A stretch of DNA of 64,000 bases. It comes from Candidatus Enterousia sp. (GTDB lineage: Bacteria > Pseudomonadota > Alphaproteobacteria > Rs-D84). The position numbers and the translations under genes were made by a program. The notes beneath the pieces are model-generated. The model searched no databases. It was not told the origin of the DNA and saw only the letters and a program-made list of their open reading frames with translations. The stretch is taken from assembly GCA_045613315.1 (NCBI GenBank), contig JAZLAV010000007.1, forward strand, positions 1,785 through 65,784, written 5' to 3'. Of the stretch, positions 16,366 to 64,000 are shown in pieces (positions within the stretch are counted from its first letter, which is position 1; each line of letters starts with the position of its first letter).

Positions 16366-17181
16366 ATGTCAGTTAGCATAGACCAAGTCTTCGTAAAACA
16401 ATTCGAAGCAGATGTTCATTTGGCTTATCAGCAAATGGGCACAAAATTGCGTTCGTCTGTACGCAGCAAATCGGGCGTCGTTGGCGCAACAACAACCTTT
16501 CAGAAGGTTGGCAAAGGAATCGCCAGTACAAAATCACGTCATGGCATTGTTCCGGTTATGAATCTTAATCATGAACCGGTGGAATGCACATTGGTTGATT
16601 ACTATGCGGGTGATTGGGTTGATGCGTTGGATGAATTGAAAACAAATGTCGATGAACGTCGTGTTGTTGCCGCCGCCGGCGCGTATGCGTTGGGACGCAA
16701 AACAGACGAATTGATTGTTGATGCAATGAAAACAACAACAACCAATGTCGGCAGTTATTCCAATGCTTTTTCCAAAGCGTCGATTTTGGAAGCCATCGAA
16801 CAACTGAATGAAAACGATGTGCCGGATGATGGTCGCCGTTTCGCGGTTGTTGGTGTGCAACAGTGGAATATATTGTTGGGGTTGGATGAATTCGTGTCGG
16901 CGGATTATGTTGGTGATACGCCACTTGCCACCGGGTTCGAATCGAAAAAATGGTTGGGCATTACATGGTTAATGTACAACGGTTTGCCGTTAAGTGGCAC
17001 GCAACGCGATTGCTTTATTTATCACGCGTCCAGTATCGGACACGCCTGTGGCCAAGAAGTCAAAACAGACATTTCGTGGCACGGTGAACGCGCAGCACAC
17101 TTTATCAGCAACAGCATGTCCCAAGGCGCCGTGTTAATAGACAACGACGGTATTGTGCGGGTCAAATGTAAAGAATCATAA
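16366..17181 (+). CDS. major capsid protein, T7 gp10-like
   Basis: RBS AAAGGGG. The blocks VFVKQFEADVHLAY...TFQKVG and VECTLVDYYAGDWVDALDELK...AAAGAYALGRKTDELIV parallel T7 gp10 as I recall it. Confidence 0.65.
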   Translation: MSVSIDQVFVKQFEADVHLAYQQMGTKLRSSVRSKSGVVGATTTFQKVGKGIASTKSRHGIVPVMNLNHEPVECTLVDYYAGDWVDALDELKTNVDERRVVAAAGAYALGRKTDELIVDAMKTTTTNVGSYSNAFSKASILEAIEQLNENDVPDDGRRFAVVGVQQWNILLGLDEFVSADYVGDTPLATGFESKKWLGITWLMYNGLPLSGTQRDCFIYHASSIGHACGQEVKTDISWHGERAAHFISNSMSQGAVLIDNDGIVRVKCKES

Positions 17182-40694: not shown

Positions 40695-40771
40695 GGGACC
40701 ATAGCTCAGTTGGCTAGAGCAACTGACTTTTAATCAGTGGGTCCAGGGTTCAAGTCCCTGTGGTCCCACCA
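40695..40771 (+). tRNA. tRNA-Lys (anticodon UUU)
   Basis: GGGACCATAGCTCAGTTGGCTAGAGCAACTGACTTTTAATCAGTGGGTCCAGGGTTCAAGTCCCTGTGGTCCCACCA folds as a cloverleaf with a CTTTTAA anticodon loop and encoded CCA. A terminator hairpin TGTACGCCCG...CGGGCGTACA follows. Confidence 0.93.
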
Positions 40772-40964
40772 CGAAAACTGTACGCCCGTGCGAATTTTTG
40801 TGCGGGCGTACAATTCAAAATAGCACACCGAACTGTATAATATGGTGTGTGGCGGGCGATTTAATACCGTCGTATACGGTATTTTTTTTGCCCGTTTTTT
40901 ATGAAACAGATTATAACGATTTTTTATACTGAATATTTAAACAAAAGACAAGGTGGGAAAAATA

Positions 40965-42218
40965 ATGAAAACTTTTCAGAAAATTGCGTTGATGGCGGGA
41001 TTGGGCGCGGTGGCGTATGTGTCGTTGGGGCCGAATAAAATAGGTGAGCAAAATGCGTCGGATACAAAAACAACAAAATGGGAAATTCGTATCAAACAAA
41101 ACGCCGATCGTGAAGAAGAAAGAAAACGTGTCGCAGAAGAAGAAAGATTGTTTTTATTTGCTAAACGTGATTCGTTGTTGGACACAATGGGATACAAATT
41201 CGTAAGAAATGGTTCCTTTGACAGGAAAGAAGCCGACAGGTTGTCGGGTATGACACAAATGGACCTTATGTGTGAAATGGTTGATACACTGGTTGCCCAT
41301 AAAACACAGCAATATGCGACCATGATTACGAATTTACTTAATGAGTACGGATTGAATTTTTCCCAAGATGAACATCAAAACGCGTCACCAAATGCGATTT
41401 TGGCCGGCCTTTGTGCACGGCAATATGGCGAAAATTGCGGCAAAGATATCGCAGATATCAAATTGCCACGCGAAATGTTCGATGCCGGGTTTGATTGGGG
41501 CAAATATAACAATGCCATGCAAAGTAAAATCAAGGATGCTGTTTTGGGGGTGTTAATACGCATGGACCAAGATATCGATAAATCAATACCGGATGTCATA
41601 AGAAAATTTGCCAAATATTATCCTGCGTTGGATTTAAGCCGGGTCTCGGCTAAGTATGCCCAATATTGTCTGAAGCTGAAACCATATTCGTGGGAAAAAT
41701 ATTCGGGAACCAGCGAAATGCATTTAAATGCACGTGCGTTAAATGGTGATTTGGTTGTCGGGCGTCGTGTTCGTGTTTATGATTCCCGGTTAACAATGGA
41801 CTTCTTTGGTAAAAATGCCACGTATAAATTGGTCAAAATTGCCAATAATAAATGGCAGGTTGTTCGTAAAGATAAAAACGGTAATGTCGCAAAAACCGAT
41901 GTGTTTGCGCATACAACGGATTACGAAATGTATGCCACGGCACATAAAGGTGCGCCAACCAATTCCAGTTTTGTGGTGGAACCCGGGATTCACAAGGGGG
42001 TGGCAATTTGGGCAAACGATGTTCTTTTTGTGCAATCGCGCCAGGTTTTGGATGATGCGTATCCGGACCCAAATGGTATAATTGCGTCCCGGATTGATTC
42101 ACTGCGCTTGGAAGCATTCGCCAAAGATGCGGAATATAACAAAATGAACGCCATATACAATCGTGCAGATTCATTGGCGCAAATCGCATTGTACCGGTAT
42201 AGACAAAATCGCAAGTAA
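40965..42218 (+). CDS. hypothetical exported or membrane-anchored protein (417 aa)
   Basis: N-terminal hydrophobic MKTFQKIALMAGLGAVAYVSLG. RBS is AAGGTGGGAAAAATA. No family recognised. Confidence 0.55.
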   Translation: MKTFQKIALMAGLGAVAYVSLGPNKIGEQNASDTKTTKWEIRIKQNADREEERKRVAEEERLFLFAKRDSLLDTMGYKFVRNGSFDRKEADRLSGMTQMDLMCEMVDTLVAHKTQQYATMITNLLNEYGLNFSQDEHQNASPNAILAGLCARQYGENCGKDIADIKLPREMFDAGFDWGKYNNAMQSKIKDAVLGVLIRMDQDIDKSIPDVIRKFAKYYPALDLSRVSAKYAQYCLKLKPYSWEKYSGTSEMHLNARALNGDLVVGRRVRVYDSRLTMDFFGKNATYKLVKIANNKWQVVRKDKNGNVAKTDVFAHTTDYEMYATAHKGAPTNSSFVVEPGIHKGVAIWANDVLFVQSRQVLDDAYPDPNGIIASRIDSLRLEAFAKDAEYNKMNAIYNRADSLAQIALYRYRQNRK

Positions 42219-42265
42219 ACAAATGGCCGTGTTTGCGGCCATTTGTTTTTGATTTTTGAATCGTT

Positions 42266-42994
42266 ATGAATTATGATTTGTCTATGTCACAATACATTGA
42301 TGCACATTGCCATATCTTGACCAATTCCGAAATGCGGACCGCGCACGCGCGTGGGGTGTGGCGGTTTATTGTAAATGCGACCCGTCCGGCGGATTGGGGC
42401 GCGGTTGTGGAATTGGCGCGACGTGATGATGTTGTGGGTGCAATTGGTGTGCATCCGTGGTATGTGTCCAAAATATCGGATGGCTGGGATGTCGATTTGA
42501 TAAATTTATTGGTCGCAAATCCCGATTTAATGGTGGGCGAAATCGGGTTGGATAAAAACAGGCCCGATATGGAATTACAGGTGTCTGTATTTTGTCGTCA
42601 AATGCAAATCGCACACGATTTGCACCGTGTGGCGCACGTTCATTGTGTTGGGGCGTGGGGGAAAATGTTGGATGTTTTGCGGGGCATTGAATTGCCCCCG
42701 GCGATTGTATTTCACGCATTTTCGGGTGCGGTCGAATTTGTGCCTGAATTGGTCGAAATGGGGGCGTATTTTTCATTTGGTGTCGGCATTTCTAACAATG
42801 CGCGGGTACGGTTGCACGGTGCGGTGCGCACGGTACCGGTGGCGCGAATACTGGTCGAAAGTGATGCGCCCGATATGGTAATGCCGGATACAATACCGGA
42901 TACAGTTGCAAAGATTGCCGAATTTCGCGGGTGTAATGCGGGATATTTGGCGAACATTATTTACAATAACACAATGGGGTTAATAAATGGATGA
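42266..42994 (+). CDS. tatD: TatD-family metal-dependent hydrolase
   Basis: YIDAHCHI, GEIGLD, VHCV, FHAFSG and ESDAPD motifs. Confidence 0.8.
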   Translation: MNYDLSMSQYIDAHCHILTNSEMRTAHARGVWRFIVNATRPADWGAVVELARRDDVVGAIGVHPWYVSKISDGWDVDLINLLVANPDLMVGEIGLDKNRPDMELQVSVFCRQMQIAHDLHRVAHVHCVGAWGKMLDVLRGIELPPAIVFHAFSGAVEFVPELVEMGAYFSFGVGISNNARVRLHGAVRTVPVARILVESDAPDMVMPDTIPDTVAKIAEFRGCNAGYLANIIYNNTMGLING

Positions 42995-43670
42995 ACGGTT
43001 TATGCGGATTCGTGCGCTGTTGGGGGATGCGGCGATGGAAAAATTGCACAGAGCAACGGTTATGATTGTGGGGTGTGGTGCGGTCGGTTCATTCGCGACA
43101 GAGGCATTGGCCCGCAGTGGCATTGGTAATCTTGTCTTGGTTGATTTTGACACAGTTGAAAAATCAAATATAAATCGGCAGTTGTTCGCACTGGATTCAA
43201 CGATTGGTATGCCCAAAGTGGATGTTGCGCGCAATCGGATTCACGATATAAACCCCGATGCAAATGTGGTTCCGATAAGGGTGTTCTTTGACGAAAATAC
43301 CGACATTAATATCCGACCCGATTTTGTGGTTGATGCAATCGATACGGTTGATTCAAAAATCGCGCTTTACAAATGGTGTGTGGCGCGCAATATCCCGTTT
43401 GTGGCCAGTATGGGCGCGGCACTGAAAAGTGATACATCACAAATAATGTCGGGTCGCATTTATAAAACAGCGGTTTGTCCATTGGCGGCGCGTGTGCGCA
43501 AAATGGCGCGTGATGCGGGATTACCCGATTTTCCGGTTGTTTATTCGACCGAATCCCCAAAAAAATCGGCCGCCACAGCCGGCCGTGTGTTTGGTTCGAT
43601 TGTCACAATAACCGGGGCGTTCGGATTACGTGTCGCAGATATGGTGATACATGAATTGGTTGTTTCATAA
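42987..43670 (+). CDS. tcdA: tRNA threonylcarbamoyladenosine dehydratase (ThiF/MoeB-like, TcdA/CsdL)
   Basis: VMIVGCGAVGSFATEALARSGIGNLVLVDFDTVEKSNINRQ, then DAIDTVDSKIAL. It overlaps tatD by 8 nt. Confidence 0.75.
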   Translation: MDERFMRIRALLGDAAMEKLHRATVMIVGCGAVGSFATEALARSGIGNLVLVDFDTVEKSNINRQLFALDSTIGMPKVDVARNRIHDINPDANVVPIRVFFDENTDINIRPDFVVDAIDTVDSKIALYKWCVARNIPFVASMGAALKSDTSQIMSGRIYKTAVCPLAARVRKMARDAGLPDFPVVYSTESPKKSAATAGRVFGSIVTITGAFGLRVADMVIHELVVS

Positions 43671-43699
43671 ACGATAAAAATCTGATACAATCATATCCC

Positions 43700-44626
43700 A
43701 TGATGGTGAATATATTTTTTTTGATTTTGGGTTTTGTTTTATTAACCCGTGGGGCCGATGTCTTTGTTGATGGTGCAGCGGCGATTTCGCGACGCCTGCA
43801 TATTCCGGAAATAATAATTGGATTAACGGTTGTTGCCATGGGAACCAGTGCGCCCGAAGCCGCCATCAGCATCCAGGGCGCATTGCGTGACGCGTCGGGA
43901 ATATCCATCGGCAACATAATCGGCAGTAATATTGCCAACATTTTACTTATATTGGGTGTGGCGGCATGTATATCGACATTGCGGGTTGGTCGCAATACAT
44001 TGCGGTATGAAATGCCGTTTATGGTGTTCATAACGTGTGTATTGGGAATTGTTGGCGCAAATTTTGGCGAAATTAACCGTGTCGGCGCGGCGATATTGTT
44101 CGGATTGTTTATTGTATTTTTGGGGTATTTGTTCGCAACGACCACACCAGATGCGTCGGACGGCCAAATCGAAAAAATATCTGGGGTTCATATTGTTGTA
44201 ATGATTGTGGCGGGGCTGGCCGCACTTGTTATTGGCAGTAATATGATAATAGAATCCGCAACGGAAATCGCGTTGTGTCTCGGCGTTTCGGAACGCACGG
44301 TCGGATTAAGTATTGTGGCATTTGGCACAAGTTTGCCAGAATTATCAACATGTGTTTCCGCGGCTATAAAGAAAAAATCAGATTTGGTAATCGGAAATAT
44401 TATAGGTTCCAACATATTTAATATTTTGTTTGTGTTGGGAATTGCGGGTATGGTTGAAACGATACCATTTGATTCCCGGTTTGTTGGCGACACAATGTTC
44501 GCGATTTTGATGGCCATAATGTTGTGGGTGGCATCTATGGGCAAAAAACACGAATTGGGTCGATTTACGGGTGTTTTGTTTGTTGTATTGTATGTGATTT
44601 ACATCGTATATATTATTGTGATGTAA
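43700..44626 (+). CDS. CaCA-family cation/Ca2+ antiporter (YrbG-like)
   Basis: Two alpha-repeats, GNIIGSNIANILLILG and GNIIGSNIFNILFVLG. Polytopic. Confidence 0.8.
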   Translation: MMVNIFFLILGFVLLTRGADVFVDGAAAISRRLHIPEIIIGLTVVAMGTSAPEAAISIQGALRDASGISIGNIIGSNIANILLILGVAACISTLRVGRNTLRYEMPFMVFITCVLGIVGANFGEINRVGAAILFGLFIVFLGYLFATTTPDASDGQIEKISGVHIVVMIVAGLAALVIGSNMIIESATEIALCLGVSERTVGLSIVAFGTSLPELSTCVSAAIKKKSDLVIGNIIGSNIFNILFVLGIAGMVETIPFDSRFVGDTMFAILMAIMLWVASMGKKHELGRFTGVLFVVLYVIYIVYIIVM

Positions 44627-49300: not shown

Positions 49301-49789
49301 TCAATATCTATTTGTACGACTTGTCCAATCATCTCCATATTTATCCCATCCAGATAATCCACGCAAATATTCAATTCTGTTTTCTTTTAAATTGTCCATA
49401 AAATCGTCAATTTTATCGTCGGGTATATTGTTCAAGGCATTGATTGTATTATCACCAATTTTACCGTCAACTTTTAAGTTTGCACCCATTGAATCGTTTA
49501 ATGTTTCTTGAACAATTTTTCCTACATTGTTAAAGTTGCTCATAACTCCCATATCAAATACAGCATTCGCAATCCGTTCGTTTTCTATTTCGCCAATATG
49601 GCGTTCGTCATAATAATCTTCACCATAGATTTGCTGTGCTTGTTCGCCAGTTAAATCTTTTACATTATCCGGAAAATGAAACTCTGGATGGTCCGCATTA
49701 TATTTATCCAATGTTGGTTGTGTTATGCCAGAATTTGTTGGTTGGTCTATTATATTTGGGGTGTCAGCATAGCCGCCTTCTTCCGCCAT
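49301..49789 (-). CDS. GH108-type lysozyme with a PG_binding_3 domain (possibly degenerate)
   Basis: EEGGYADTP...NSGITQ (GH108 N-terminal motif, GG to NS variant) and LKVDGKIGDNTINAL (PG_binding_3). The reading frame stays open upstream to 49978 through a MuF-like CEEC...HHPNCRC motif. Confidence 0.55.
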   Translation of the reverse strand: MAEEGGYADTPNIIDQPTNSGITQPTLDKYNADHPEFHFPDNVKDLTGEQAQQIYGEDYYDERHIGEIENERIANAVFDMGVMSNFNNVGKIVQETLNDSMGANLKVDGKIGDNTINALNNIPDDKIDDFMDNLKENRIEYLRGLSGWDKYGDDWTSRTNRY

Positions 49790-53363: not shown

Positions 53364-53392
53364 TTGATTTTTAGTAAAATTTGATGTATAAT
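53364..53392 (+). promoter_or_regulatory. sigma70-type promoter of the AAA ATPase gene
   Basis: TTGATT (53364-53369), 17-nt spacer, TATAAT (53387-53392). Confidence 0.6.
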
Positions 53393-53414
53393 GCAGTCGG
53401 ATGAAAAGGGGAGA

Positions 53415-54731
53415 ATGATGAAAAGATATGCACTAAAACAATTAAAAGATTGGAAAAATAGCAAGATAAGAAAACCTTTGCTCGTTCAAGGGGCGAGACA
53501 GGTTGGAAAAACTTGGTTATTAAAAGAATTTGGCAGAGAGTGCTACGAAAATACAGCTTATGTTAATTTTTATGATACTCCAGAAGCACATAATGTATTT
53601 GAAGGATCTTATAATGTTGCAAATATAATTTCTGCTCTAGGATCAATCACTAATGAGCAAATTGTTCCAGGTAACACTTTAATAATACTCGATGAAATTC
53701 AAGAATGCGAACGTGCTTTAAACGCTTTAAAATTTTTCAAAGAAAATGCACCGCAATATCATATAGCTGTGGCTGGGAGCCTTTTGGGTGTTGCGCTAAA
53801 CCATAATAAAATGTCTTTTCCTGTCGGACAAGTGGATTTTATGACGCTACATCCATTAAGTTTTTGTGAGTTTTTAGAAGCGGTTGGTAAAGAGGTGTTA
53901 GCAAAAAATATACAAGAAAATAATATTGATGTGTTGCGTATGCTTCATAATGACAGTGTTCAATTACTAAAACAGTATATGGTTATAGGTGGTATGCCGG
54001 AAGCTGTCAAAACCTTTATAGAAACAAGAGATTACGAGAGTGCACAAAAGATTCATAAAGATATTTTGGTCAGCTATCAAAATGATTTCGCTAAATATAC
54101 AACAGGGAATAATGCGGCAAAAATAATGGCTGTTTGGAACTCTGTTCCTGTACAATTAGCAAAACAAACTAGAAAAACGAAAAGATTCTTTTTCTCAGAC
54201 GTATTCCCTGGTGCCAGATCTCGTAACTTAGAAGATGCGATAGAATGGTTAAGATTATCGGGGCTTATACACTTAGTTCCAAAAGTATCAAAGCCTAGTT
54301 TACCTTTGGCTAGTTATATAGAATCTGGAGTGTTTAAGGTATATATGATAGATACGGGCTTGTTAAGCACCATGTCTGGTTTAGCAGCAAAGACAGTTAT
54401 CGATGGCGATCGGATATTTCAAGAGTTTAAAGGTTCTCTGACTGAACAATACGTATTGCAAGAGTTGGTACTGAATGATATACGGTTGAATTATTGGGCA
54501 TCTGAAAGTGAATCAGAGATAGATTTTATGTTCCAACATGAAGGCGACATTGTACCAGTTGAGGTTAAGGCGAATATAAGTTTGCAGGCAAAAAGTTTGC
54601 ATGTTTATCGGCAGAAGTATAAACCAAAATTCTCTGTGCGAACGTCTTTAGCGGGGTACGAAGTAAACAACGGCTTGTACAATATCCCATTATACATGAT
54701 AGGGAATGTACTAAGAATTATTTCGGAATAG
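53415..54731 (+). CDS. AAA-family ATPase (AAA_14 plus DUF4143) with a PD-(D/E)xK-like C-terminus
   Basis: Walker A GARQVGKTW, Walker B LIILDEIQ, C-terminal SESEIDFMFQHEGDIVPVEVKAN. RBS is GAAAAGGGGAGA. Confidence 0.75.
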   Translation: MMKRYALKQLKDWKNSKIRKPLLVQGARQVGKTWLLKEFGRECYENTAYVNFYDTPEAHNVFEGSYNVANIISALGSITNEQIVPGNTLIILDEIQECERALNALKFFKENAPQYHIAVAGSLLGVALNHNKMSFPVGQVDFMTLHPLSFCEFLEAVGKEVLAKNIQENNIDVLRMLHNDSVQLLKQYMVIGGMPEAVKTFIETRDYESAQKIHKDILVSYQNDFAKYTTGNNAAKIMAVWNSVPVQLAKQTRKTKRFFFSDVFPGARSRNLEDAIEWLRLSGLIHLVPKVSKPSLPLASYIESGVFKVYMIDTGLLSTMSGLAAKTVIDGDRIFQEFKGSLTEQYVLQELVLNDIRLNYWASESESEIDFMFQHEGDIVPVEVKANISLQAKSLHVYRQKYKPKFSVRTSLAGYEVNNGLYNIPLYMIGNVLRIISE

Positions 54732-55372
54732 TTTGCTATTGCGTTTATCTGCTTCTTCTGTAGAACAAAGGTTTGCTTCTGCATAATTACGGCTGTCACA
54801 AAAGTCGTCACAGTCCCATTCTAGCCCACGATCAAATTGGTCGCGTGGAGTTAACTTTGGTTTAAACGTTGAAAAAGATTGGTGCCTATCCGGTATTGCT
54901 CGATATCTTAGCATACACATCTGATCGCACAGTTTTTGTTGTCGCACATGGTTATATCTGGCATTTTTGTCTCCTTTGCTGTGTGTATTAGCAGGTTAAG
55001 TTGGTTTAATCAACATAAAACACACTTATTTTTGCGCTGGTATTTTTATAGAAAAAAGCACACATTTTTCTATAAAAATCGATTCGTTTGAAAGTGATAA
55101 TTTTTTTGTTGGGTGACGCCGATGAACAAATTTTATAAAATTTAACAAAACTGTATTTAGATGCGTTTGAATATGCTTTTATATGCTTTTGATACATTAT
55201 GATACAATTTCATTGCTAAAAAAAGTTATATTTTCTGCGGCTTTTACAAGACTTTTATTTTTTAGCATGCTATAATTTGCATGTAAGGATATCAAAAATT
55301 GCTGTGAGTTTAGATGATACTTTATAGCGTTTTTGAACCGAACAAAACCATCAAAACCCAAAGGAGAAAAAC

Positions 55373-55636
55373 ATGGAACATGAGTTCTTGAATTATGGGG
55401 GGATGGAGAGAGAAGAAACAGATTACAGATTCATAAATATAAAGGAAGACGTTTTGGAAGGTAGACTTCTTAAACCAAGAGAAGCGGCTGCATATCTCGG
55501 ATCATCTGTTTCGGCATTAAGCCAATATCGTGCGCTGGGGATTGGACCAGAATACTTCAAAGTCGGCAAAATGGTACGATATCGCAGGTCTGATATAGAC
55601 AAGTGGCTTGAGCAGAAGAAAAGCAGCAAAAAATAG
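55373..55636 (+). CDS. AlpA/excisionase-family HTH protein
   Basis: LLKPREAAAYLGSSVSALSQYRALGIGPEYFKVGKMVRYRRSDIDKWL. It lies directly upstream of the integrase. An extended -10 TGCTATAAT sits at about 55267-55275. Confidence 0.65.
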   Translation: MEHEFLNYGGMEREETDYRFINIKEDVLEGRLLKPREAAAYLGSSVSALSQYRALGIGPEYFKVGKMVRYRRSDIDKWLEQKKSSKK

Positions 55637-55702
55637 TTGTTTCTACTGGATATTCCGTATTTATCGTGCATTGTTGTGTAGCTGTAACAAAGGAGTACAC
55701 AT

Positions 55703-56911
55703 ATGGCAGAACAATGGAAATGTTATACCAAGGCGTTTCGCGATACATGGATACGTCTGTTAAATTCGGATATCAATTTGCAGGTCAGTGATGGGACAAT
55801 ACCGGGGCTTTTCCTGCGATATTCGGCGGCAACACGCGCCATTAGGTTTTTTCTGGGCTGTAAAATCGATAACAAGAAATGTAATTTATATATTGGGCGA
55901 TATAACGATTATTCAATCAAAGATATTCGCGATATGGCGTGGAATATGCGACACCAGCTTGCCCAGGGACATGATCCACGTCGTGAGAAAATAGAACAAC
56001 AAATGAAAGAAAAAGAGGCTCTTGGCGAAAAATTCCAAGACCTTTTCCCGCAATATATGGATAAATATTCCAAGATTTATAAGAAACCAAGAACACAAGA
56101 TTCCAACTGGGGACAATATCGACTTTATATCGGCCCGCTATTTGGCAAGATGTACATGCGTCAGATAGAAGAAAAGCATGTAATGGACGCTTATACCAAA
56201 TGGGTAAAAAGGACGTCGTTTTCAACAGCCAACAAAGCATTATCACTATTATCTAACTTTTGGGACTGGTGCGAAATGTACAAATACGTAGATCGCAATA
56301 CAAACCCTTGCAAATATGTCCGCAAGGGCGCAAATAAAGTTTATAAACCGCAAATATTGGATCAAGAAGGATACAGGGCATTATCGCATGCGCTGGATGT
56401 TGGACCAGAAGTGTCTAAGATGCATCCGCGTTTGTTCAATGCATTGCGAGTGTTGATGCTAACTGGCTGTCGTGCATCTGAAATCACAGGACTAGAAGTG
56501 GACGAGCTTGTCCTTATGCATAAAGTGATACATTTGAAAGACAGTAAAACAGGAGCCCGAGATGTGAAACTGTCTGATGCGGTTATACCATATTTACAAA
56601 CTGCGTTGGATGAAGCTGTTGCACTAGGTAGCAAATATGTATTCCCAGGTGTTGGTAATATACGACGTCCGATAAATAATATCCGCAAACCGTTTGAATG
56701 GGCGCTTGAATATGCAAAGTTGCCACACATGCGGATACACGACCTGAGACACTCGTTCATCAGTATGGGGGCGAATATCGGCGAAAATATGGCCGCCATG
56801 AAGGAGGCAGCAGGCCACAGTCGCATAACCACTACCGAAGGCTATACTCATATCATGGACAGCAGTACTTACAAAGCCATCAATAACGTTGCTAATGCAA
56901 TATGTGGTTAA
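55703..56911 (+). CDS. int: tyrosine site-specific integrase (P4-like)
   Basis: C-terminal catalytic region TGCRASEI, HDLRHSFISMGAN and GHSRITTTEGYTH. A TGTGTAGC box (55675-55682) lies 20 bp upstream of the ATG. Confidence 0.9.
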   Translation: MAEQWKCYTKAFRDTWIRLLNSDINLQVSDGTIPGLFLRYSAATRAIRFFLGCKIDNKKCNLYIGRYNDYSIKDIRDMAWNMRHQLAQGHDPRREKIEQQMKEKEALGEKFQDLFPQYMDKYSKIYKKPRTQDSNWGQYRLYIGPLFGKMYMRQIEEKHVMDAYTKWVKRTSFSTANKALSLLSNFWDWCEMYKYVDRNTNPCKYVRKGANKVYKPQILDQEGYRALSHALDVGPEVSKMHPRLFNALRVLMLTGCRASEITGLEVDELVLMHKVIHLKDSKTGARDVKLSDAVIPYLQTALDEAVALGSKYVFPGVGNIRRPINNIRKPFEWALEYAKLPHMRIHDLRHSFISMGANIGENMAAMKEAAGHSRITTTEGYTHIMDSSTYKAINNVANAICG

Positions 56912-56970
56912 TTGTGCGCTGGTGCATCGTGGTGAGTCGCTTTTACCCCTTTTGGGGCTTTTTATTTAGG

Positions 56971-57104
56971 GGGTAACGGCGAGCGCAACACCTTGTCACA
57001 CACAGCAGTCCAAAATGTGTTCGCAGTTCGCACTTTGGGGTTGTAAACCGCAGAAATCTAAGAAATATGGGGTGCGAACACATGCGAACACCTAGTGCGA
57101 ACAC
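56971..57104 (+). repeat. iteron cassette A (unit GTTCGCAC)
   Basis: GGGTAACGGCGAGCGC (56971-56986); GTTCGCAGTTCGCAC (57019-57033); about 38-bp spacer containing CGCAGAAATCT; inverted GTGCGAAC at 57072, TGCGAAC at 57083, GTGCGAAC at 57095. Confidence 0.8.
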
Positions 57105-57118
57105 ATATCATCAAATTA

Positions 57119-57403
57119 TTAAAAAGTATATTTGCGACCTTTGTTCTGGCCGGTGGCAGTCAAAAAGCCTTTATTTACCAAAACAGTAAACAATTGACGG
57201 ACTCGTTGGGGTGATTTACCAGTCATCCTTACCGCGTCTGCGGCGGCGATTTCACCTTTGCTAATAATGACTGCTGCGATGGTTACAAAGAACCTGCGTT
57301 CGGTATCGCTCAGCATATCGATAGATTTATCGCTAGTTATATCGCTAACTTTTTTATCGCTACTAGCGATATATTGGTCACAATTGGAATTTTTATCATA
57401 CAT
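57119..57403 (-). CDS. small winged-helix DNA-binding protein
   Basis: The C-terminal AADAVRMTGKSPQRVRQLFTVLVNKGFLTATGQNKGRKYTF is wHTH-like. It lies between iteron cassettes A and B. Confidence 0.5.
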   Translation of the reverse strand: MYDKNSNCDQYIASSDKKVSDITSDKSIDMLSDTERRFFVTIAAVIISKGEIAAADAVRMTGKSPQRVRQLFTVLVNKGFLTATGQNKGRKYTF

Positions 57404-57534
57404 AAATTTGTGCCTTTTCTTTGATTCTAACCCATTTTTACGGAAAATCTAGTTTTTTAATAATTGCATAACAGCCCTGTATCGTGATGTATCATCGAAT
57501 ATAAAAAGGTACTGTCGGGACATTTTTCTACTGA

Positions 57535-57664
57535 GGGTAACGGCGAGCGAGGCACTTCGCTAGCGTCAGGAATAAAAAAATGGTTCGCAGGTTCGCACTT
57601 TGGGGATTTATTGCGTAAAAACAAAGCATTAAGTGCGAACCTAAGGTGCGAACCAGGTTCGCAC
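57535..57664 (+). repeat. iteron cassette B (unit GGTTCGCAC)
   Basis: GGGTAACGGCGAGCG (57535-57549); GGTTCGCAGGTTCGCAC (57582-57598); spacer; inverted GTGCGAACC at 57633 and 57646; direct GGTTCGCAC at 57656. Confidence 0.8.
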
Positions 57665-57945
57665 CCTAAATACAAAACAAATTCTCTGATTTCAATTCTG
57701 AAATCAATACTGAAATCAGATATGATATCGTGAGTAATAGAAGAAAGAAGAAAAGAAAATAAAATATAAAATAAATAAAAATAAAATTAAAAGAAGAGAA
57801 AGAAGTAATGTGTGTTCAAATTGTTGAAAAATTGTTGAAAACTCACGTACATCTGTTGGTATAAGTTATAATGCTTTGCAATGTGTTTATAGCAATCTTA
57901 ATCAATAATAATGTCAATAATCTATGGTAATGTATTGCTTTGCAA

Positions 57946-58074
57946 GGGTGATTACTAGCGCAACACCTTGTCACACACTGCAACAAAAAATAGGTGCGCA
58001 GGTGCGCACTTTGGATATTTATTCCGTAAAAACAAATAACTAAGTGCGTACCAAGGGTGCGTACCAAGTGCGCA
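57946..58074 (+). repeat. iteron cassette C (unit GGTGCGCAC / GTGCGTACC)
   Basis: GGGTGATTACTAGCGC plus AACACCTTGTCACACAC, shared with cassette A; GGTGCGCAGGTGCGCAC (57993-58009); spacer; GTGCGTACC at 58044 and 58057; GTGCGCA at 58068. Confidence 0.8.
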
Positions 58075-58113
58075 TCAAAACAAAAAAGGTACTGTGACGG
58101 AAGTTTTTATCAA

Positions 58114-58251
58114 GGGTAACGGCGAGCGCGGCACCTCGCTACACACAGAAATAAATTTTAAGCCGCAGGCCGCACTTTTTCTTTCTGTGTTGCAGAAATC
58201 TGGGATTTTAGTGCGGCTTTGTGCCGCGGCAGTGCCGCACTTATGCCGCAC
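58114..58251 (+). repeat. iteron cassette D (unit GCCGCAC)
   Basis: GGGTAACGGCGAGCGC (58114-58129); GCCGCAGGCCGCAC (58162-58175); spacer with TGCAGAAATCT; GTGCGGC at 58211, GTGCCGC at 58221, GTGCCGCAC at 58232, TGCCGCAC at 58244. Confidence 0.8.
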
Positions 58252-58602
58252 CAACACCTTAAATTAGCCTGAAATTAGACTTGATATTAGCGGTAAAGAT
58301 AAAGAAAAGTAGTATAGAAAAAGATAATGATAAAGATAAAAAAATTGATAATTGTAAAGAAAAAGAAAGTAGTATATACCGGTTCACAGTTGAAAATTTG
58401 TTGAAAAATTACGTGCATATGTTGGTATAAATTGTAATGTGTTAATCTGTTTTCAGATAAATCTATATCCAAAAATTTCTTATTTTTTTATCCAAATGTA
58501 TCGTGGTGTATCATAATGTGTCAACCCTAAAACGCGCAGAAAATAAGGACTTTACAAATCAAATTTTTTCATGCATGGTGGTGATGAAGCAAAGGATTTT
58601 TT

Positions 58603-58983
58603 ATGAACGATTTTGAGTTTGTTGTTGATTTGTTAAGCAAAACAGGAGCTGTTGGCAATTGCCTTATAGACCTGGAAATAACAAAACGGAATTTTATCGC
58701 TTTAAAGGGTAAAAATGATGTGCGGATACAAAAACAACTCAACATCAGTTTGCAAAGATATCACAATGAAATTGACGAACTGCACAGAATGGTTGGTGTC
58801 AATCTGCCATCACCAAACGAACCAATAAACCATAACCCCAGAAACGAATTGGAATACATAACTGACAGAATCCCAGCATATGTTGCTTTGCGTGAATTAA
58901 AAGGCGAAGTTAGAGAACGTACAATAGAATACCTGTTACCCAGATTATATCCAGAATGTAAAAACGAGGGAGACATAGGATAA
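58603..58983 (+). CDS. hypothetical protein (126 aa), first gene of the R-M-like operon
   Basis: RBS AAAGGATTTTTT before the ATG. No family recognised. Confidence 0.55.
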   Translation: MNDFEFVVDLLSKTGAVGNCLIDLEITKRNFIALKGKNDVRIQKQLNISLQRYHNEIDELHRMVGVNLPSPNEPINHNPRNELEYITDRIPAYVALRELKGEVRERTIEYLLPRLYPECKNEGDIG

Positions 58984-59011
58984 TATGGGATGTTCTACTT
59001 GACTTTATCCC

Positions 59012-60040
59012 TTGTTTTGGGCTAAGTTTTTAAGAAAGGAAAGGTTAGATCTCGTGGAATATGAAATTGATGTAAAAGAGAACATGATTTTGCAAAAGTG
59101 GCCTGATTTATTGGGAATCCTTTTGCGTGACCATACCACGGGAAAAAACATATTCTGGGCTACGGATCTTTATGAACAACAATATGGCCACCGTTACGCA
59201 TTTCGTTCTCAAATAATGCCAGAGTTAATCACTGGTGAAAATGGCAACATTATTAAGCCGCGTGTTGCAAAAACGAAGAAAGCACAACAAGACAGAGTTA
59301 AAGATAAGGCTGAAGTTTTTACACCGGCATGGATTTGCAATAAACAAAACAACCTGATTGATAACGATTGGTTCGGTTATGAAGGTGTTTTTAATAACGA
59401 AAAAGATGATAATACTTGGATGGCCACCAAGAAGCCTGTTGTATTCCCAGAAAACAAAACATGGGTTGATTATGTTCGCGAATTGCGTTTAGAAGTTGCT
59501 TGTGGTGAAGCACCGTATCTTGTTAGCCGTTACGATATCACCACAGGCAAAAAAATAAAATTACAAAATAGAATTGGATTATTGGATCGTAAAATACGCA
59601 TAGTAAACGAAAACGCGGCCAGCGATAGTGAGTGGCTTGCGATGGTAAAATGGGCATTCAAAAGCACATATGGATACGAATGGCAAGGAGATAATTTATT
59701 ACTTGCTCGCGAAAATCTGTTGTTTACATTTATCGATTATTTTGAAGACAGATTTGGCAAAGAACCAGATCTGGATTTGTTAAAAGAAATAGCAGAAATA
59801 ATCTCTTGGAACATCTGGCAGATGGATGGCATCCGTGGTGTGCTGCCATGTACATGTTGTAATTCAAAATATATAGATTTGTTCGGCGAAAAGACAATGG
59901 ATTGTTGTCTTGGATGCAAAACGGGTGACATTCATAGCCATAACGGAAAGTACTGCTATATCGGTGATTGGAACAAAATGACATCGAAAGGCCAACCAAC
60001 AAGAATTAAATATATTTCATTACTAAAGGGTAAAAAATGA
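59012..60040 (+). CDS. methyltransferase-fold-like protein with degenerate motifs and a C-terminal Cys/His cluster
   Basis: AEVFTPAWICNKQNN resembles MTase motif X. RLEVACGEAPYLVS sits where motif I (LEPACGSGAFL) would be. There is no NPPY. The C-terminus reads CTCCNSKY...CCLGCKTGDIHSHNGKYC. The track start is TTG; GTG 59054 after GGAAAGG is an alternative. Confidence 0.6.
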   Translation: MFWAKFLRKERLDLVEYEIDVKENMILQKWPDLLGILLRDHTTGKNIFWATDLYEQQYGHRYAFRSQIMPELITGENGNIIKPRVAKTKKAQQDRVKDKAEVFTPAWICNKQNNLIDNDWFGYEGVFNNEKDDNTWMATKKPVVFPENKTWVDYVRELRLEVACGEAPYLVSRYDITTGKKIKLQNRIGLLDRKIRIVNENAASDSEWLAMVKWAFKSTYGYEWQGDNLLLARENLLFTFIDYFEDRFGKEPDLDLLKEIAEIISWNIWQMDGIRGVLPCTCCNSKYIDLFGEKTMDCCLGCKTGDIHSHNGKYCYIGDWNKMTSKGQPTRIKYISLLKGKK

Positions 60041-63000
60041 GTAACTTTGAATCAGCTTTCAGTGGATATAAACTTATTTACGTTTTTAGCATGCCTTACG
60101 CAGATCACGAGGGCGCGTTAAAGATTGGTGAAGCAACAATAAACACTGATGGTTCGCCAGATGCTCTGACACCAAATTGCCAAGAGTTAAATGCTGCCGC
60201 TAACAAACGTATTAAGCAATATACACAAACAGCAGGCCTGAGGTACGATTTGTTATACACAGAACTTGCTAAGACAAACGCTGGTAAGGCTTTTTCTGAT
60301 CATGATGTTCATAAAGTTTTAAATCGTTCAAACATAAAGAAAAAACAATTTGAAGAAGTTGATGGATCTAAAGAATGGTATATAGTTGGTTTGGATGTTG
60401 TCAAAAATGCGATACAAGCCGTTAAAGAAGATAGAAAATCATTAGATCCGAACGAAGTGATTTCGTCTTGTACACCAATTCATTTGCGTGATGAACAGAA
60501 AGATGCAGTAAAGAAGACAATTAAACGCTTCAAATCTGGACACAATCGTATGTTGTGGTACGCAAAAATGCGTTTTGGTAAAACTTTGACAGCAATGTCT
60601 TTAGTTGGCGAGCTTGGGTTAAAGCGCACGATAATTATTACACACAGACCGGTGGTAAAAGATGGTTGGTATGACGATTTTAAAAAGCTGTTTTGTGATA
60701 AACCAGAATATAAATTTGCATCTCGTACCGTTGGGGAAAATTTTGCAGATGTAGAACGTGATGCGAAGCACGATAGATGTAAATATTTGTATTTTGCGTC
60801 TATCCAAGATCTGCGTGGAGCAGAAGCCGCTGGTGGGAAATTTGATAAAAATGATGCCATCTTCAGTACCGATTGGGATATGGTCATTATTGATGAAGCA
60901 CACGAAGGAACTCAAACAGAACTTGGCAAAAACATAGCCGAATTGTTAGTCAAAGACAAAACATACTTGTTGCAATTGTCGGGTACACCGTTCAACTTGT
61001 TGGATAATATAGACGAGGACGAGGTCTATACCTGGGATTATATTATGGAACAACGTGCCAAAGCAGACTGGCATAAAAAACATCTTGGTGAACCAAATCC
61101 GTACGCATCATTACCTAAGATGAATATATTCACTTACGATATGAGCCAAATAGAGGGTGGTAAATATGGATCTTATACCGAAGATAAATATTTCAACTTT
61201 TCTGAATTTTTCAAGACCAAACCTAACGGTGATTTTGTTCATGAAGACGATATACGTGGTTTCTTGAACTTATTAGTGAATGATAAAACAGATAGCAATT
61301 ATCCTTTTTCTAAACAGGAATATCGTGATAATTTCAGACATTCTTTGTGGATGGTACCTGGCGTTAAAGAAGCTAAAGCACTAAGTAAATTGCTTAAAGA
61401 ACACCCTGTGTTTGGAAAGTTCAATATCGCTAACGTGGCTGGTGATGGTGACGAAGAAACAAACTTTAAAGATGCGCTAGATTTAGTGCGTAAAGCGATT
61501 ACAGATCATCCACAAGACACATATTCCATAACGATTTCTTGTGGTCGTTTAACAACAGGTGTAACTGTACCAGAATGGACAGCGGTGTTTATGTTGGCTG
61601 GTGCATACTCAACGGCTGCATCAACATATATGCAAACTATATTCCGTGTTCAATCTGCGGCAAATATCAATGGGCGTATCAAAGAAAATTGCTTTGTGTT
61701 TGATTTTGCACCGGATCGTACATTGAAATGTGTTGCGGAATCAGTTAAAGTTTCAACTCGTGCCGGTAAAACGCGTGCTACAGATCGTGTAATAATGGAA
61801 GATTTGTTGCAATTCTGCCCGATTATTTCGGTAACAGGTTCACATATGAACCCATATAATGTCAATGGTATGCTTGAACAGTTAAAGCGTGCGTATATTG
61901 ATCGAATTGTTACGCATGGATTTGAAGATCCAAACCTGTTCAATCGCGATATGTTGTTGCAGTTGGACAAATCGGCAGTTGAAAAATTTGACGCACTACA
62001 ACAATTGGTCGGAAGTTCCACGTCTAAAAGTTCTGACACAGATAAAGCAAAAAAGATTATTGTTACAGATAACGGCATGAATCCAGATGGTGCAAAACAA
62101 ACCAATCAGCCGCCGCAAACACCTCTAACAGATGCTGAACGTGCTGCGCTGGAAGAACGTAAAGAGGCTAAATCTAAACGTGAAAAGGCGTTAAAAGCTT
62201 TAAAAGGTGTTGCTATTCGTATACCCATGTTGATTTATGGTGCAGATATTGATGTGAACCAAGATATTGACTTGGAACAGTTTGTCGACATGGTTGATCC
62301 GATTTCTTGGGATGAATTTATGCCACGTGGTATAGATAAAGAAGTATTCAAACAATTTATTCCATATTTTGATCGTGATGCATTTATTGGTGCTGGTAAA
62401 GAGATACGGCAACGTATTAAACGTGCTGACCGTATGGAACCAACAACCAGAACGCGTTTTATGACCGCACTGTTCTCCACCTTTAAGAACCCTGACAAGG
62501 AAACAGTTTTAACACCATGGCGCGTTGTAAATATGCATATGGGTGATTGTTTGGGCGGATATAATTTCTATGACTCGGAATACAAAAATCCAATTCCAGA
62601 TACCGAAGATGTAAGGTATATGGACATCCCAGATGTCACAGACGAAGTGTTTGGGCCAAAAGACACCAAGATTTTAGAAATAAATTCAAAATCTGGATTA
62701 TATCCATTATACGTTACATATACAATTTGGCGCAAAAGATGTACGGAAAATAATATTGATATAACAAAATTAACCGAAGATGATACGTTGTTTGCCAAGG
62801 CTCTTGAAACATGGGATAGCGTTGTTCAGAATAATGTTTATATCATATGTAAAACTCAAATGGCAAAAAGCATTACACAAAGGACATTATGTGGGTATCG
62901 TGATGTAAAAATAAATGCACATGCTTTTGATAATTTGATTACAATGATTAAAGATGGTAAAAGTAATAAGTTTATAGAAAAAGCTACCTCTTGTGATACA

Positions 63001-64000
63001 TACAATTCTAAATGCAAGGAGAAGAATATGAAATTTAACGCAGTAGTAGGAAACCCTCCTTATCAGGTTAGTGATGGTGGTGGTACTGGAGATAGTGCAA
63101 AACCAATATATAATTTATTTGTAGATGCAGCTAAATTGTTAAACCCACAATTCGTATCTATGATTATGCCTTCTAGATGGTTAAAAAAGGGTAAGGGTTT
63201 AGACTCATTTAGAGCAGAAATGATGTCTGATACAAGAATACGGACAATTCATGATTTTGCTGACGAACATGAGTGTTTTCCAGGAGGTGTGCATATTGAT
63301 GGTGGTATAATGTTCTTTTTATGGGACAAGCATTATGATGGTAAAGTAAAATACTTATTCAAGCCGGCTAATGGTGAATTAGAGGTTTCTGAAAGGTTCT
63401 TAAAAACAGATCTTTCAAGCACGGTTGTGAGAGACGCCAGACAAATATCCATTCTAGAGAAAATAGCAAAACATAAAAAAACGTCATTTAGTCAGCTTGT
63501 ATCTATAAGAAATAATTATGGTTTTGCAACGGATTTATTCAATAGACCGCAAAATTATCCAGACGCACATCTTTGTTTGGAAAAACAAAACAAAAATTTT
63601 GTAAAAATATATGGCGTAAAGGGTAACAAAGGCGGAGCTAAACGTGTAATAGGCTATGTCGATAAAAATAGTATAAAAAAAGATTTGTCTTCAGTAAATC
63701 TGTATAAATTGTTCTTTTCTTATGCTTACTCAACTGGGGCAACTGTGCCACCGGAAATTATTGTTGGGAAACCAGGAGAAATTGCCACAGAAACGTTTTT
63801 ACGTATAGGACCATTTGATAATGAATTATATTGTAAGAACTGTTTAAATTACATGAAATCGAAGTTCTTTAGAGCATTGTTATTTTTTAACAGAATATCA
63901 AAAAATTCGTCACAGACTACTTTTGAACTTATACCTGTTCAAGATTTCACAGATAAGTCTGACATAGATTGGTCTAAATCTATTGCTGAAATAGACAAAC
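60037..64000 (+). CDS. fusion protein of T5orf172/GIY-YIG-like domain, SF2 helicase and gamma-class N6-adenine DNA methyltransferase (Type ISP-like); 3' end beyond the window
   Basis: Absent from the ORF track because it has no stop in the window. I read 1,321 codons without a stop from ATG 60037, which overlaps the upstream TGA. N-terminus: KLIYVFSMP..GALKIGEAT...DHDVHKVL...GSKEWYIV. Helicase: LWYAKMRFGKTLTA (motif I), VIIDEAHEG (II), LSGTP (III), TISCGRLTTGVTVPEW and QTIFRV (VI). Methyltransferase: ILEINSKSGLYPL (degenerate motif I) and FNAVVGNPPYQ (motif IV). Confidence 0.8.
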   Translation, partial: MSNFESAFSGYKLIYVFSMPYADHEGALKIGEATINTDGSPDALTPNCQELNAAANKRIKQYTQTAGLRYDLLYTELAKTNAGKAFSDHDVHKVLNRSNIKKKQFEEVDGSKEWYIVGLDVVKNAIQAVKEDRKSLDPNEVISSCTPIHLRDEQKDAVKKTIKRFKSGHNRMLWYAKMRFGKTLTAMSLVGELGLKRTIIITHRPVVKDGWYDDFKKLFCDKPEYKFASRTVGENFADVERDAKHDRCKYLYFASIQDLRGAEAAGGKFDKNDAIFSTDWDMVIIDEAHEGTQTELGKNIAELLVKDKTYLLQLSGTPFNLLDNIDEDEVYTWDYIMEQRAKADWHKKHLGEPNPYASLPKMNIFTYDMSQIEGGKYGSYTEDKYFNFSEFFKTKPNGDFVHEDDIRGFLNLLVNDKTDSNYPFSKQEYRDNFRHSLWMVPGVKEAKALSKLLKEHPVFGKFNIANVAGDGDEETNFKDALDLVRKAITDHPQDTYSITISCGRLTTGVTVPEWTAVFMLAGAYSTAASTYMQTIFRVQSAANINGRIKENCFVFDFAPDRTLKCVAESVKVSTRAGKTRATDRVIMEDLLQFCPIISVTGSHMNPYNVNGMLEQLKRAYIDRIVTHGFEDPNLFNRDMLLQLDKSAVEKFDALQQLVGSSTSKSSDTDKAKKIIVTDNGMNPDGAKQTNQPPQTPLTDAERAALEERKEAKSKREKALKALKGVAIRIPMLIYGADIDVNQDIDLEQFVDMVDPISWDEFMPRGIDKEVFKQFIPYFDRDAFIGAGKEIRQRIKRADRMEPTTRTRFMTALFSTFKNPDKETVLTPWRVVNMHMGDCLGGYNFYDSEYKNPIPDTEDVRYMDIPDVTDEVFGPKDTKILEINSKSGLYPLYVTYTIWRKRCTENNIDITKLTEDDTLFAKALETWDSVVQNNVYIICKTQMAKSITQRTLCGYRDVKINAHAFDNLITMIKDGKSNKFIEKATSCDTYNSKCKEKNMKFNAVVGNPPYQVSDGGGTGDSAKPIYNLFVDAAKLLNPQFVSMIMPSRWLKKGKGLDSFRAEMMSDTRIRTIHDFADEHECFPGGVHIDGGIMFFLWDKHYDGKVKYLFKPANGELEVSERFLKTDLSSTVVRDARQISILEKIAKHKKTSFSQLVSIRNNYGFATDLFNRPQNYPDAHLCLEKQNKNFVKIYGVKGNKGGAKRVIGYVDKNSIKKDLSSVNLYKLFFSYAYSTGATVPPEIIVGKPGEIATETFLRIGPFDNELYCKNCLNYMKSKFFRALLFFNRISKNSSQTTFELIPVQDFTDKSDIDWSKSIAEIDK

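Follow-up and report, generated by a model that had tools for sequence, protein, structure and literature searches.

Which kind of system is encoded by the two genes at the end of a 64,000-nucleotide stretch of Candidatus Enterousia sp. DNA (contig JAZLAV010000007.1)? This whole stretch, referred to here as the window, ends in a small gene and a very large gene, and the large protein combines a nuclease-like domain, an ATPase, and a DNA methyltransferase. A first-pass annotation had described the locus as a Type ISP-like single-chain restriction-modification enzyme with a swapped nuclease, accompanied by two upstream genes. The analysis presented here suggests that the two genes probably form an ATP-dependent restriction-modification system, in which the small protein is an obligate half-methyltransferase partner of the large protein. 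It can also be proposed, more tentatively, that one gene, the large one, gives rise to two enzymes that share a single recognition module by way of a nested product.

The large gene lies at 60037..64000 on the forward strand. Its open reading frame (ORF) runs without interruption from ATG 60037 to base 64000, giving 1,321 codons, and every motif that the first-pass annotation quoted from it is present. Homologues of the large protein are 1,317–1,351 amino acids (aa) long, and the closest one, P0001, has 1,346 aa and is 97% identical to the window protein; therefore, a full-length product of about 1,346 aa is predicted, with the stop about 25 codons past the window edge and no long extra C-terminus. 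The missing end, read from relatives, is a conserved C-terminal helix (...QLYKKYGLDKKEIDFIESMIKPME). An exact look-up of proteins from the window returned no contig that continues the sequence. L001, the locus of a 97% identical relative, served as a proxy for this end and for the downstream genes.

The small partner gene is located at 59054..60040 on the forward strand. Translation from GTG 59054 gives 328 aa and from TTG 59012 gives 342 aa, and the former start is favoured by the gene calls of relatives and by an identical 328-aa protein on record. The ATGA overlap between the end of the 342-aa ORF (59012–60040) and the start of the large ORF is real, which agrees with the translational coupling described earlier. 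With the start placed at GTG 59054, the gap to the 126-aa ORF further upstream (58603..58983, forward strand) is 70 nt and not the 29 bp given before. In a profile search covering the 88 loci that hold the large gene, from many phyla, 81 had the small gene immediately 5' of it and in the same orientation; in the other seven, the sequence available ahead of the large ORF does not exceed about 740 nt. The small protein is thereby read as an obligate partner rather than an accessory. The 126-aa gene had been counted as a third gene of the system. Among the 88 loci, it is present only in the window and L001, and its protein has no match in Pfam, PADLOC, or other family-library scans. It was rejected as a component, being kept only among close relatives, and is regarded as a lineage-specific neighbour outside the conserved system. 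The downstream small genes were rejected likewise, as the first of them occurs only in close relatives. Because the small gene is almost universal upstream, whereas the 126-aa gene and the first downstream gene are restricted to close relatives, gene conservation indicates that the core comprises two genes, not three.

The large protein is composed of a T5orf172 domain (GIY-YIG superfamily), a superfamily 2 (SF2) DEAH ATPase, a linker, a gamma-class N6-adenine methyltransferase of the Eco57I family, and a variable recognition domain, in this order. Pfam matches to T5orf172, ResIII, and Eco57I confirm the domain order proposed in the first-pass annotation. The T5orf172 domain, a putative nuclease, is encoded at 60076..60423 (forward strand) and matches Pfam PF10544 at residues 14–129. 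The match was obtained when the first 150 aa were scanned alone (E 9.2e-5, 23.3 bits against a cut-off of 20, profile positions 3–100 of 101), and a whole-protein scan at E ≤0.01 does not report it. All 14 diverse family members tested gave the same Pfam match, and residues Y15, K29, G31, R58, E76, H92, E113, and W114 are invariant in this domain of the family. An AlphaFold2 (AF2) model of the domain has a predicted local distance difference test (pLDDT) value of 82.6, and a Foldseek search of the predicted viral structures in BFVD placed T5orf172 proteins at the top (probability 0.97–1.0, E 4e-3 to 5e-2, template modelling score 0.41–0.48). A T5orf172 domain can be an active nuclease, as found for Gp88 of phage ICP1 (PMC8263062), and T5orf172 has been named as a nuclease module of N6A restriction-modification systems (PMC4738411).

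The helicase-like SF2 ATPase, a putative double-stranded DNA (dsDNA) translocase, is encoded at 60478..61956 on the forward strand. Pfam ResIII matches residues 148–319 (E 5e-18), and motifs I (GKT), II (DEAH), III (SGTP), and VI (QTIFRV) are invariant across 24 homologues. Weak HsdR-like matches were also obtained for this part (NCBIfam EcoAI HsdR, E 4.5e-7, and PADLOC REase_I). The region that follows (61957..62478, forward strand) is a linker or coupler without a family match, in which the conservation profile shows a variable charged stretch at about residues 660–700. PADLOC assigned the large protein to REase_MTase_IIG (PDLC03626), a single-chain model of 1,359 positions whose collinear alignment takes in the helicase and methyltransferase parts and leaves out residues 1–148; a PADLOC scan of the first 148 aa gave no match. 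The small protein was assigned to MTase_II, so that two of the three proteins proposed for this check were recognized, and the 126-aa protein was not.

The methyltransferase of the large chain can be divided into two halves. The internal N-terminal half, encoded at 62479..63027 (forward strand), contains a motif X-like ETVLTPW, the motif I variant ILEINSKSGLYPL, and the motif II variant IICKT. The catalytic half, encoded at 63028..64000 (forward strand), contains motif IV (GNPPYQ, 63046–63063) and the variable target-recognition domain; it appears to be an exchangeable cassette and corresponds to a putative nested product of about 348 aa. Pfam Eco57I methylase matches residues 932–1081 (E 2.8e-30), with profile positions 1–88 aligned to residues 932–1013, and PADLOC MTase_II PDLC03375 covers residues 993–1320. 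GNPPY is present in 83 of 85 family members, and conservation is lowest at about residues 1050–1230, as expected for a recognition domain. Motif I had been called degenerate. The variant ILEINSKSGLYPL is nearly invariant in the 85 members, and the alignment identifies it as a conserved variant and not as decay. In place of the canonical AdoMet (S-adenosylmethionine) motifs, a GxG motif I and an acidic motif II, the large chain has NSKSG and a lysine; this lysine occurs at the motif II position of 78 of the 85 members, and no member has an acidic residue there. In class I methyltransferases, the acidic residue of motif II binds the ribose of AdoMet.

The small protein carries motif X (AEVFTP), motif I (LEVACGEAPYL), motif II (YGYE), and motif III (NIWQMDG), and the family consensus (AEVFTP, LExxCGEAPYL, YG(Y/F)(E/D), NIWQMDG) corresponds to motifs X, I, II, and III of gamma-class enzymes. 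No (D/N/S)PP(Y/F/W) motif IV was found in the small-protein family. The acidic residue of motif II is E or D in 78 of 78 members. Using hhalign, the family was aligned to the N-terminal halves of 70 complete methyltransferases of about 520 aa with 94% probability (E 1e-7) and with motifs X, I, and II in register. PADLOC matched the small protein to MTase_II PDLC03390 (E 2.9e-113), and its NCBI name is likewise that of a methyltransferase. A Pfam scan of the small protein gave no match, and an HMMER search for solved relatives returned none that was meaningful. The canonical FLEPSAGDGNFL is found in a distant homologue on a plasmid, which also matches Pfam MmeI_Mtase weakly. Based on the motifs, the profile comparison, and the gene fusions and fissions described below, the small protein is identified as the AdoMet-binding half of a gamma methyltransferase, without the catalytic half. 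The earlier reading of a methyltransferase-like fold was therefore right for the half with motifs X, I, II, and III, and the complete fold that it implied is not there, as the NPPY half is absent. A PD-(D/E)xK nuclease reading of the small protein (E161...D175...D192-x-K194) was rejected, because these residues are methyltransferase motif I and the following helix and because the family aligns to methyltransferase N-halves. A cluster of cysteines and histidine (C282, C299, C302, H310, and C315; window about 59855–59960) is invariant in Bacteroidota. The Cys-rich C-terminal tail occurs only in Bacteroidota and is missing in Firmicutes and Spirochaete homologues, and it appears to be a lineage-specific, zinc-ribbon-like addition.

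The internal N-half of the large protein was also aligned with the N-halves of proteins annotated as complete methyltransferases (hhalign, 76% probability, E 2e-5, over motifs X, I, and II). A direct hhalign comparison of the small protein with the whole large protein gave no match; for this reason, the relationship between the two N-halves is drawn through the complete methyltransferases and the fusions. The lysine at motif II in the large protein, as opposed to E/D in the small protein, suggests that the two N-halves differ in function. The same alignment, together with the near-invariant motifs, lends some support to another explanation, in which the large protein is an ordinary single-chain Type ISP-like enzyme that modifies DNA with its own methyltransferase. 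The small protein would then be accessory or regulatory, for example in sensing AdoMet, in assembly, or in modifying the second strand alongside another large chain. Type ISP and MmeI-type enzymes are precedents, having one methyltransferase and modifying one strand (PMC3874165, PMC2731913). We consider this explanation unlikely, and the gene arrangements of relatives bear on it directly.

In loci L096–L099, the system is a split operon that encodes a small protein of 326 aa, a separate NPPY half with recognition domain of 336 aa, and a T5orf172-helicase protein of 1,103 aa. The 336-aa protein of L096 is 61% identical to the cassette of the window, and the 1,103-aa protein ends with the internal N-half, just ahead of motif IV. 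The NPPY half thus exists as a polypeptide of its own, which argues against a self-sufficient single chain. The phage versions point in the same direction. Those of PTm1 and FNU4 consist of the small protein and the NPPY half only, and the nuclease and motor are gone. In Tenacibaculum phage PTm1, gp279 is a full-length homologue of the small protein (E 5.5e-163), gp278 is a helix-turn-helix (HTH) protein, and gp277 (344 aa) begins with MKFDIIVGNPPYQ and aligns with the C-terminal 345 residues of the large protein (E 8e-97). In Fusobacterium phage FNU4, a 630-codon frame joins the small protein (profile positions 17–321) to VKFDVVIGNPPYQ... and the recognition domain, and one Pfam Eco57I match spans the junction. 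These two phages show that the small protein can supply the missing half. The FNU4 record (vB_FnuS_FNU4, OQ808964.1, L091 2167–4056) has a 546-aa methylase annotated inside the 630-codon frame. The first 84 codons of the frame form the conserved N-terminal part of the small protein, including AEVFTP, and contain no ATG, GTG, or TTG; this gene may be 5'-truncated beside an integrase, or may use an unusual start.

Three-gene relatives of the window family also exist (L100–L102 and L092). Loci L100–L102 and the gut phage NatCom_35866 encode a short small-like protein, a complete methyltransferase of 506–523 aa, and a separate T5orf172-helicase protein of 928–974 aa. The short small-like proteins of L100–L102 have a weak Pfam MmeI_Mtase match, and the T5orf172 Pfam match is explicit in the three-gene variant. 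In the window type, the helicase protein is fused to the methyltransferase. The extra AdoMet-binding half is kept in all cellular variants and in that of NatCom_35866.

A comparison of close relatives delimits the cassette. Four of them (P0002, P0003, P0005, and P0007) are 91–99% identical to the window protein over residues 1–998 and 22–63% identical from residue 999 to the end, and P0019 shows the opposite mosaic pattern. The breakpoint of the mosaic is the Met seven residues ahead of GNPPY. The segment from this Met to the C-terminus accordingly has the sequence characteristics of an independent, exchangeable module. The small protein is about 90% identical whichever cassette accompanies it, so it does not set the specificity.

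The conserved Met is a probable internal translation start. In the window, a candidate ribosome-binding site and start lie at 63016..63030 on the forward strand, with AAGGAG at 63016–63021, a spacing of six bases, and ATG at 63028–63030. The codon seven residues before GNPPY was ATG in 75, GTG in five, and TTG in three of 83 non-redundant loci, and was always capable of serving as a start. Replacement by Val or Leu has occurred in about four independent changes, each of them to GTG or TTG, whereas FNU4, in which the small protein is fused in front, has GTA at this position. Stand-alone homologues begin at the conserved Met; these are PTm1 gp277, the L096 336-aa protein, and 10 of 13 short matches. 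Pairing of the 16S anti-Shine-Dalgarno (anti-SD) sequence with the 17 nt upstream of the conserved Met codon was also calculated. Outside Bacteroidota, the median is -8.9 kcal/mol, with 35 of 42 loci at or below -6 kcal/mol; in Bacteroidota, the median is -0.5 kcal/mol, with three of 38 loci at or below -6 kcal/mol. The gene-wide mean is -2.3 kcal/mol for comparison, and the AAGGAG site of the window pairs at -8.3 kcal/mol. In many loci outside Bacteroidota, the SD-like site is among the top 1% of gene positions. Bacteroidota largely lack SD-led initiation, and their stretch upstream of the conserved Met is A-rich (0.55 compared with 0.30 locus-wide). The residues encoded upstream of the Met differ between phyla (KKGG/KEG versus NNDDN), and therefore the nucleotide signal appears to track the initiation rules of the host and not a constraint on the protein.

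Several observations weigh against this start and favour a single chain with a structural Met. The Met is also conserved at the same position in complete 520-aa methyltransferases, where it could have a structural role. The SD-like sequence could have arisen incidentally from a linker rich in Lys, Gly, and Glu, or be left over from a gene that was once separate, and the lack of SD use in Bacteroidota means that the signal cannot be judged there. Because its N-half aligns to those of complete methyltransferases, the large protein may also methylate without help, and the small protein may serve another purpose. Against a purely structural Met stand the restriction of its Val and Leu codons to GTG and TTG and the SD-like signal that follows the host phylum.

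A mechanism can be proposed in which the recognition domain and the methyltransferase domain would read a short asymmetric site. On unmethylated DNA, the ATPase would translocate along dsDNA and the T5orf172 domain would nick or cut, as the analogy of Type ISP and Type I enzymes suggests (PMC3874165). If the internal start is used, the large gene would also give a product of about 348 aa, consisting of the catalytic half and the recognition domain, from the internal ATG 63028. Together with the small protein, this product would complete the fold and form a nuclease-free modification enzyme with a specificity identical to that of the restriction chain, and the full-length chain would be the motor-driven nuclease. 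Fold complementation would lock the specificities of restriction and modification together, which is the logic of Type I systems carried out through a split fold. Phages PTm1 and FNU4 would have captured just those two halves with which they could methylate their own DNA in advance. Such sharing would explain why the region from NPPY to the end is swapped as a unit and why these phages took only two halves.

Structural comparison provides further points against the proposed system and its mechanism. Searches for solved relatives of the large protein with phmmer and a 24-sequence profile, including its helicase and methyltransferase parts, returned no meaningful PDB chain at E values up to 1–10. 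ATP-dependent translocation followed by cleavage on head-to-head collision, as in Type ISP enzymes, is drawn purely by analogy, as HMMER finds no solved relative, not even LlaBIII. In a Foldseek search of the PDB, the T5orf172 model gave nothing significant, and the GIY-YIG enzyme At-HIGLE was at rank 22 (E 2.4). The AF2 model of the small protein (pLDDT 75.9) likewise had no significant match in the PDB, where DrdV was at rank 17 and MmeI at rank 44.

The family is widespread. The large and small proteins each comprise at least 8,000 clusters at 90% identity, and a scan of one genome per species found relatives at no fewer than 595 places, all of them full length and 40–52% identical. These places are spread over Bacteroidota, Bacillota, Spirochaetota, Verrucomicrobiota, Planctomycetota, Synergistota, Cloacimonadota, a Sutterella genome, and others, and the 80 loci kept represent the first six of these phyla, among others. 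Plasmid relatives are found in Enterococcus faecium, Lactococcus, Staphylococcus, and Limosilactobacillus. Close relatives have AbiEii, HEPN, OLD-family ATPase, KAP NTPase, ThsB-like TIR protein, and Mrr genes as neighbours in defence islands, and at some loci a short HTH gene resembling restriction-modification controller proteins overlaps the small gene. A defence role is plausible, given the defence-island location of relatives and the exchange of the recognition region among nearly identical genes. The first-pass annotation had proposed a poorly described defence system; the defence part of this proposal is retained, and the family is not rare, as the number of clusters shows; PADLOC models already label the proteins as Type IIG and Type II restriction-modification components.

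Two other functions were considered in the light of this distribution. The locus could be a methylation-only element or a decayed relic that places DNA marks for gene regulation and does not restrict. The related DnmA-YeeB-YeeC cluster of B. subtilis provides some support for this possibility and counts against a defence role, as deletions in the three-gene cluster changed neither phage sensitivity nor transformation (PMC9973331). It is nevertheless improbable here: the motifs of the nuclease, ATPase, and methyltransferase do not vary across phyla, the window retains an intact reading frame, and recognition-domain swaps and defence-island context point to selection for defence. In addition, a YeeA-YeeB(-YeeC) set, yeeAB, protects Vibrio crassostreae from phage (bioRxiv 10.1101/2021.05.05.442762). 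The second possibility is that a mobile element uses the locus for anti-restriction or offence, in a manner comparable to DarB, the large methyltransferase-helicase protein of phage P1, by which the DNA of the incoming element and not that of the host would be guarded. Relatives carried by conjugative Enterococcus plasmids and by a few phages, and an integrase 3 kb upstream in the window, are compatible with such a function. It is very improbable all the same, because only 10 of 50,697 phage records match the large protein, none of them over 80% of its length, and most loci are chromosomal and lie beside other defence genes. The conserved N-terminal nuclease domain and the controller-like HTH genes fit a restriction system, and the phage versions that do resemble counter-defence, those of PTm1 and FNU4, have neither nuclease nor motor.

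The two-gene restriction-modification system favoured here shares features with several known systems. Type ISP enzymes are defined as one polypeptide in which nuclease, SF2 translocase, gamma methyltransferase, and C-terminal recognition domain follow one another in this order (PMC3874165), and two of them, LlaGI and LlaBIII, share more than 95% identity outside the recognition domain (PMC3553950). The large protein is similar in being a single chain with the same domain order, in the swapping of recognition domains between nearly identical enzymes, and in its occurrence on plasmids and in defence contexts. However, its nuclease is T5orf172/GIY-YIG and not the Mrr-type PD-(D/E)xK domain of Type ISP, its length is about 1,346 aa compared with about 1,570 aa, and a nested internal start is likely in its gene. 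It also has an obligate partner gene, whereas Type ISP enzymes are self-contained. HMMER finds no similarity between the large protein and any solved chain, and the LlaBIII structure (PDB entry 4XQK), which should be in the set searched, is absent from the matches. Owing to the non-Mrr nuclease, the need for a partner, and the lack of detected similarity to the solved enzyme, the large protein is better described as Type ISP-like in architecture than as a member of this type, and shared descent is not shown. The proposal of a Type ISP-like enzyme with a swapped nuclease therefore stands for the architecture and the different nuclease module, and not for descent.

Compared by domain content, the DnmA(YeeA)-YeeB-YeeC set likewise combines a gamma methyltransferase with recognition domain, an SF2 helicase, and T5orf172/GIY-YIG. 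It differs in having three separate proteins, a C-terminal T5orf172 domain, and an MmeI-like methyltransferase, whereas the window type is one fused gene with the nuclease and helicase at the N-terminus. No equivalent of the small half-methyltransferase has been described for YeeABC. The paper that predicted YeeABC to act as a Type I-like system of separate subunits also mentions large single polypeptides with endonuclease, helicase, and methyltransferase domains as uncharacterised (PMC2731913). Type I systems resemble the proposed mechanism in that one specificity module would serve both a nuclease-free methylase and an ATP-driven translocating nuclease, and the HsdR-like matches of the ATPase, weak as they are, are a further likeness. 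In contrast to Type I, the window system has no HsdS or HsdM, its nuclease is not PD-(D/E)xK, and sharing would be achieved by complementation of a split methyltransferase fold and not by an S subunit.

The Type IIG/IIL enzymes Eco57I, MmeI, and DrdV share with the large protein an Eco57I-family gamma methyltransferase, a fused recognition domain, and a conserved C-terminal helix, and the Type IIG model is where PADLOC places it. These enzymes, by contrast, have no ATPase motor and use PD-(D/E)xK to cut at a fixed short distance. Eco57I has a companion methylase; where such a companion is present in this group it is a complete methyltransferase, unlike the small protein. A fold divided over two polypeptides is known from M.AquI and M.EcoHK31I, which are two-subunit split C5 methyltransferases. 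Those enzymes modify cytosine at C5 and are not linked to a motor-nuclease, whereas the enzyme of the window is of the N6-adenine kind, is divided after motif III and before motif IV, and has a catalytic half that doubles as a segment of the restriction chain. Signatures of BREX, DISARM, and MANTIS (Gao_RL), namely PglZ, BrxC, DrmA/B, and MtsA/B, were not found by PADLOC or in the neighbourhoods examined; PADLOC returned restriction-modification models only, apart from negligible BrxH, DrmD, and PbeA helicase matches. Campylobacter Cj0690c was considered as a characterised relative behind the PADLOC model and was rejected, as it is an ordinary fixed-distance Type IIG enzyme (PMC3526280). Within the collection of papers searched, none was found on the large-protein family, the half-methyltransferase partner, or the internal start.

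The surroundings of the system contain further features. The island upstream includes a GH108 lysozyme-like protein with a peptidoglycan-binding domain (49301–49789, minus strand), an AAA_14/DUF4143 ATPase (53391–54731), and, about 3 kb from the system, a tyrosine integrase (55703–56911). A 94-aa ORF (57119–57403, minus strand) is conserved in L001. Between the integrase and the 126-aa ORF, 1.2 kb of non-coding sequence (56971–58200) holds four diverged copies of a repeat of 56–143 nt, which begins GGGTAACGGCGAGCG...CAC, continues with GTTCGCACTTTGGGG, and has no Rfam match. Short tandem TGTATCGTGNTGTATCAT and AAATTGTTGAAAAATT motifs are found near these repeats, for which the iteron/promoter unit of the first-pass annotation is a candidate reading. 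An Rfam scan of 55000–64000 gave no match, a strict Bacteroides-type promoter pattern was not matched upstream of the operon, and a megablast search of 58400–64000 against E. coli genomes, plasmids, and phages found no near-identical DNA.

Further upstream, positions 40695–44626 contain tRNA-Lys (40695–40771), a 421-aa ORF without a Pfam match, TatD (42266–42994), ThiF (42987–43670), and a Na/Ca exchanger. The TatD-ThiF chromosomal neighbourhood also occurs in loci L002 and L003, where the pair flanks a different defence island; hence, this site looks like a hotspot for variable defence genes. In L001, positions 14916–16771 directly downstream of the system encode a 397-aa AAA_15/AAA_21 ATPase and a 220-aa protein of unassigned family, and the start of the 220-aa gene overlaps the ATPase stop codon by one base. 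This pair may be a separate two-gene defence candidate. On the Enterococcus faecium plasmid p16-164_1 (L089 7836–9080), the large gene is followed by genes for a GmrSD_N (DUF262) protein and a 269-aa protein. The large protein of this plasmid has an extra N-terminal extension of about 110–150 aa, which is also present in the Lactococcus plasmid pUCCL635C, and its small partner carries the NCBI name 'restriction endonuclease'.

As the family is widespread and is already caught by restriction-modification profiles, the sequence comparisons place the locus not as a new kind of system but as an uncharacterised variant, with a split methyltransferase and a probable nested gene. Its members are at present labelled 'Eco57I methylase domain-containing protein' or 'restriction endonuclease subunit M'. 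If the proposal is correct, they would constitute a distinct class of ATP-dependent restriction-modification systems in gut Bacteroidales, on Firmicutes plasmids, and in several other phyla. This class would be distinguished by a motor-driven GIY-YIG-type nuclease, a methyltransferase split between motifs III and IV, and a nested start that shares a swappable cassette. Methylome motifs in many gut bacteria could then be assigned to pairs of large and small genes, and barriers to the genetic manipulation of Bacteroidales and enterococci would become predictable. The cassette boundary would be a natural design point for re-targeting specificity, and the shared cassette would explain how phages achieve counter-defence by carrying only the two methyltransferase halves.

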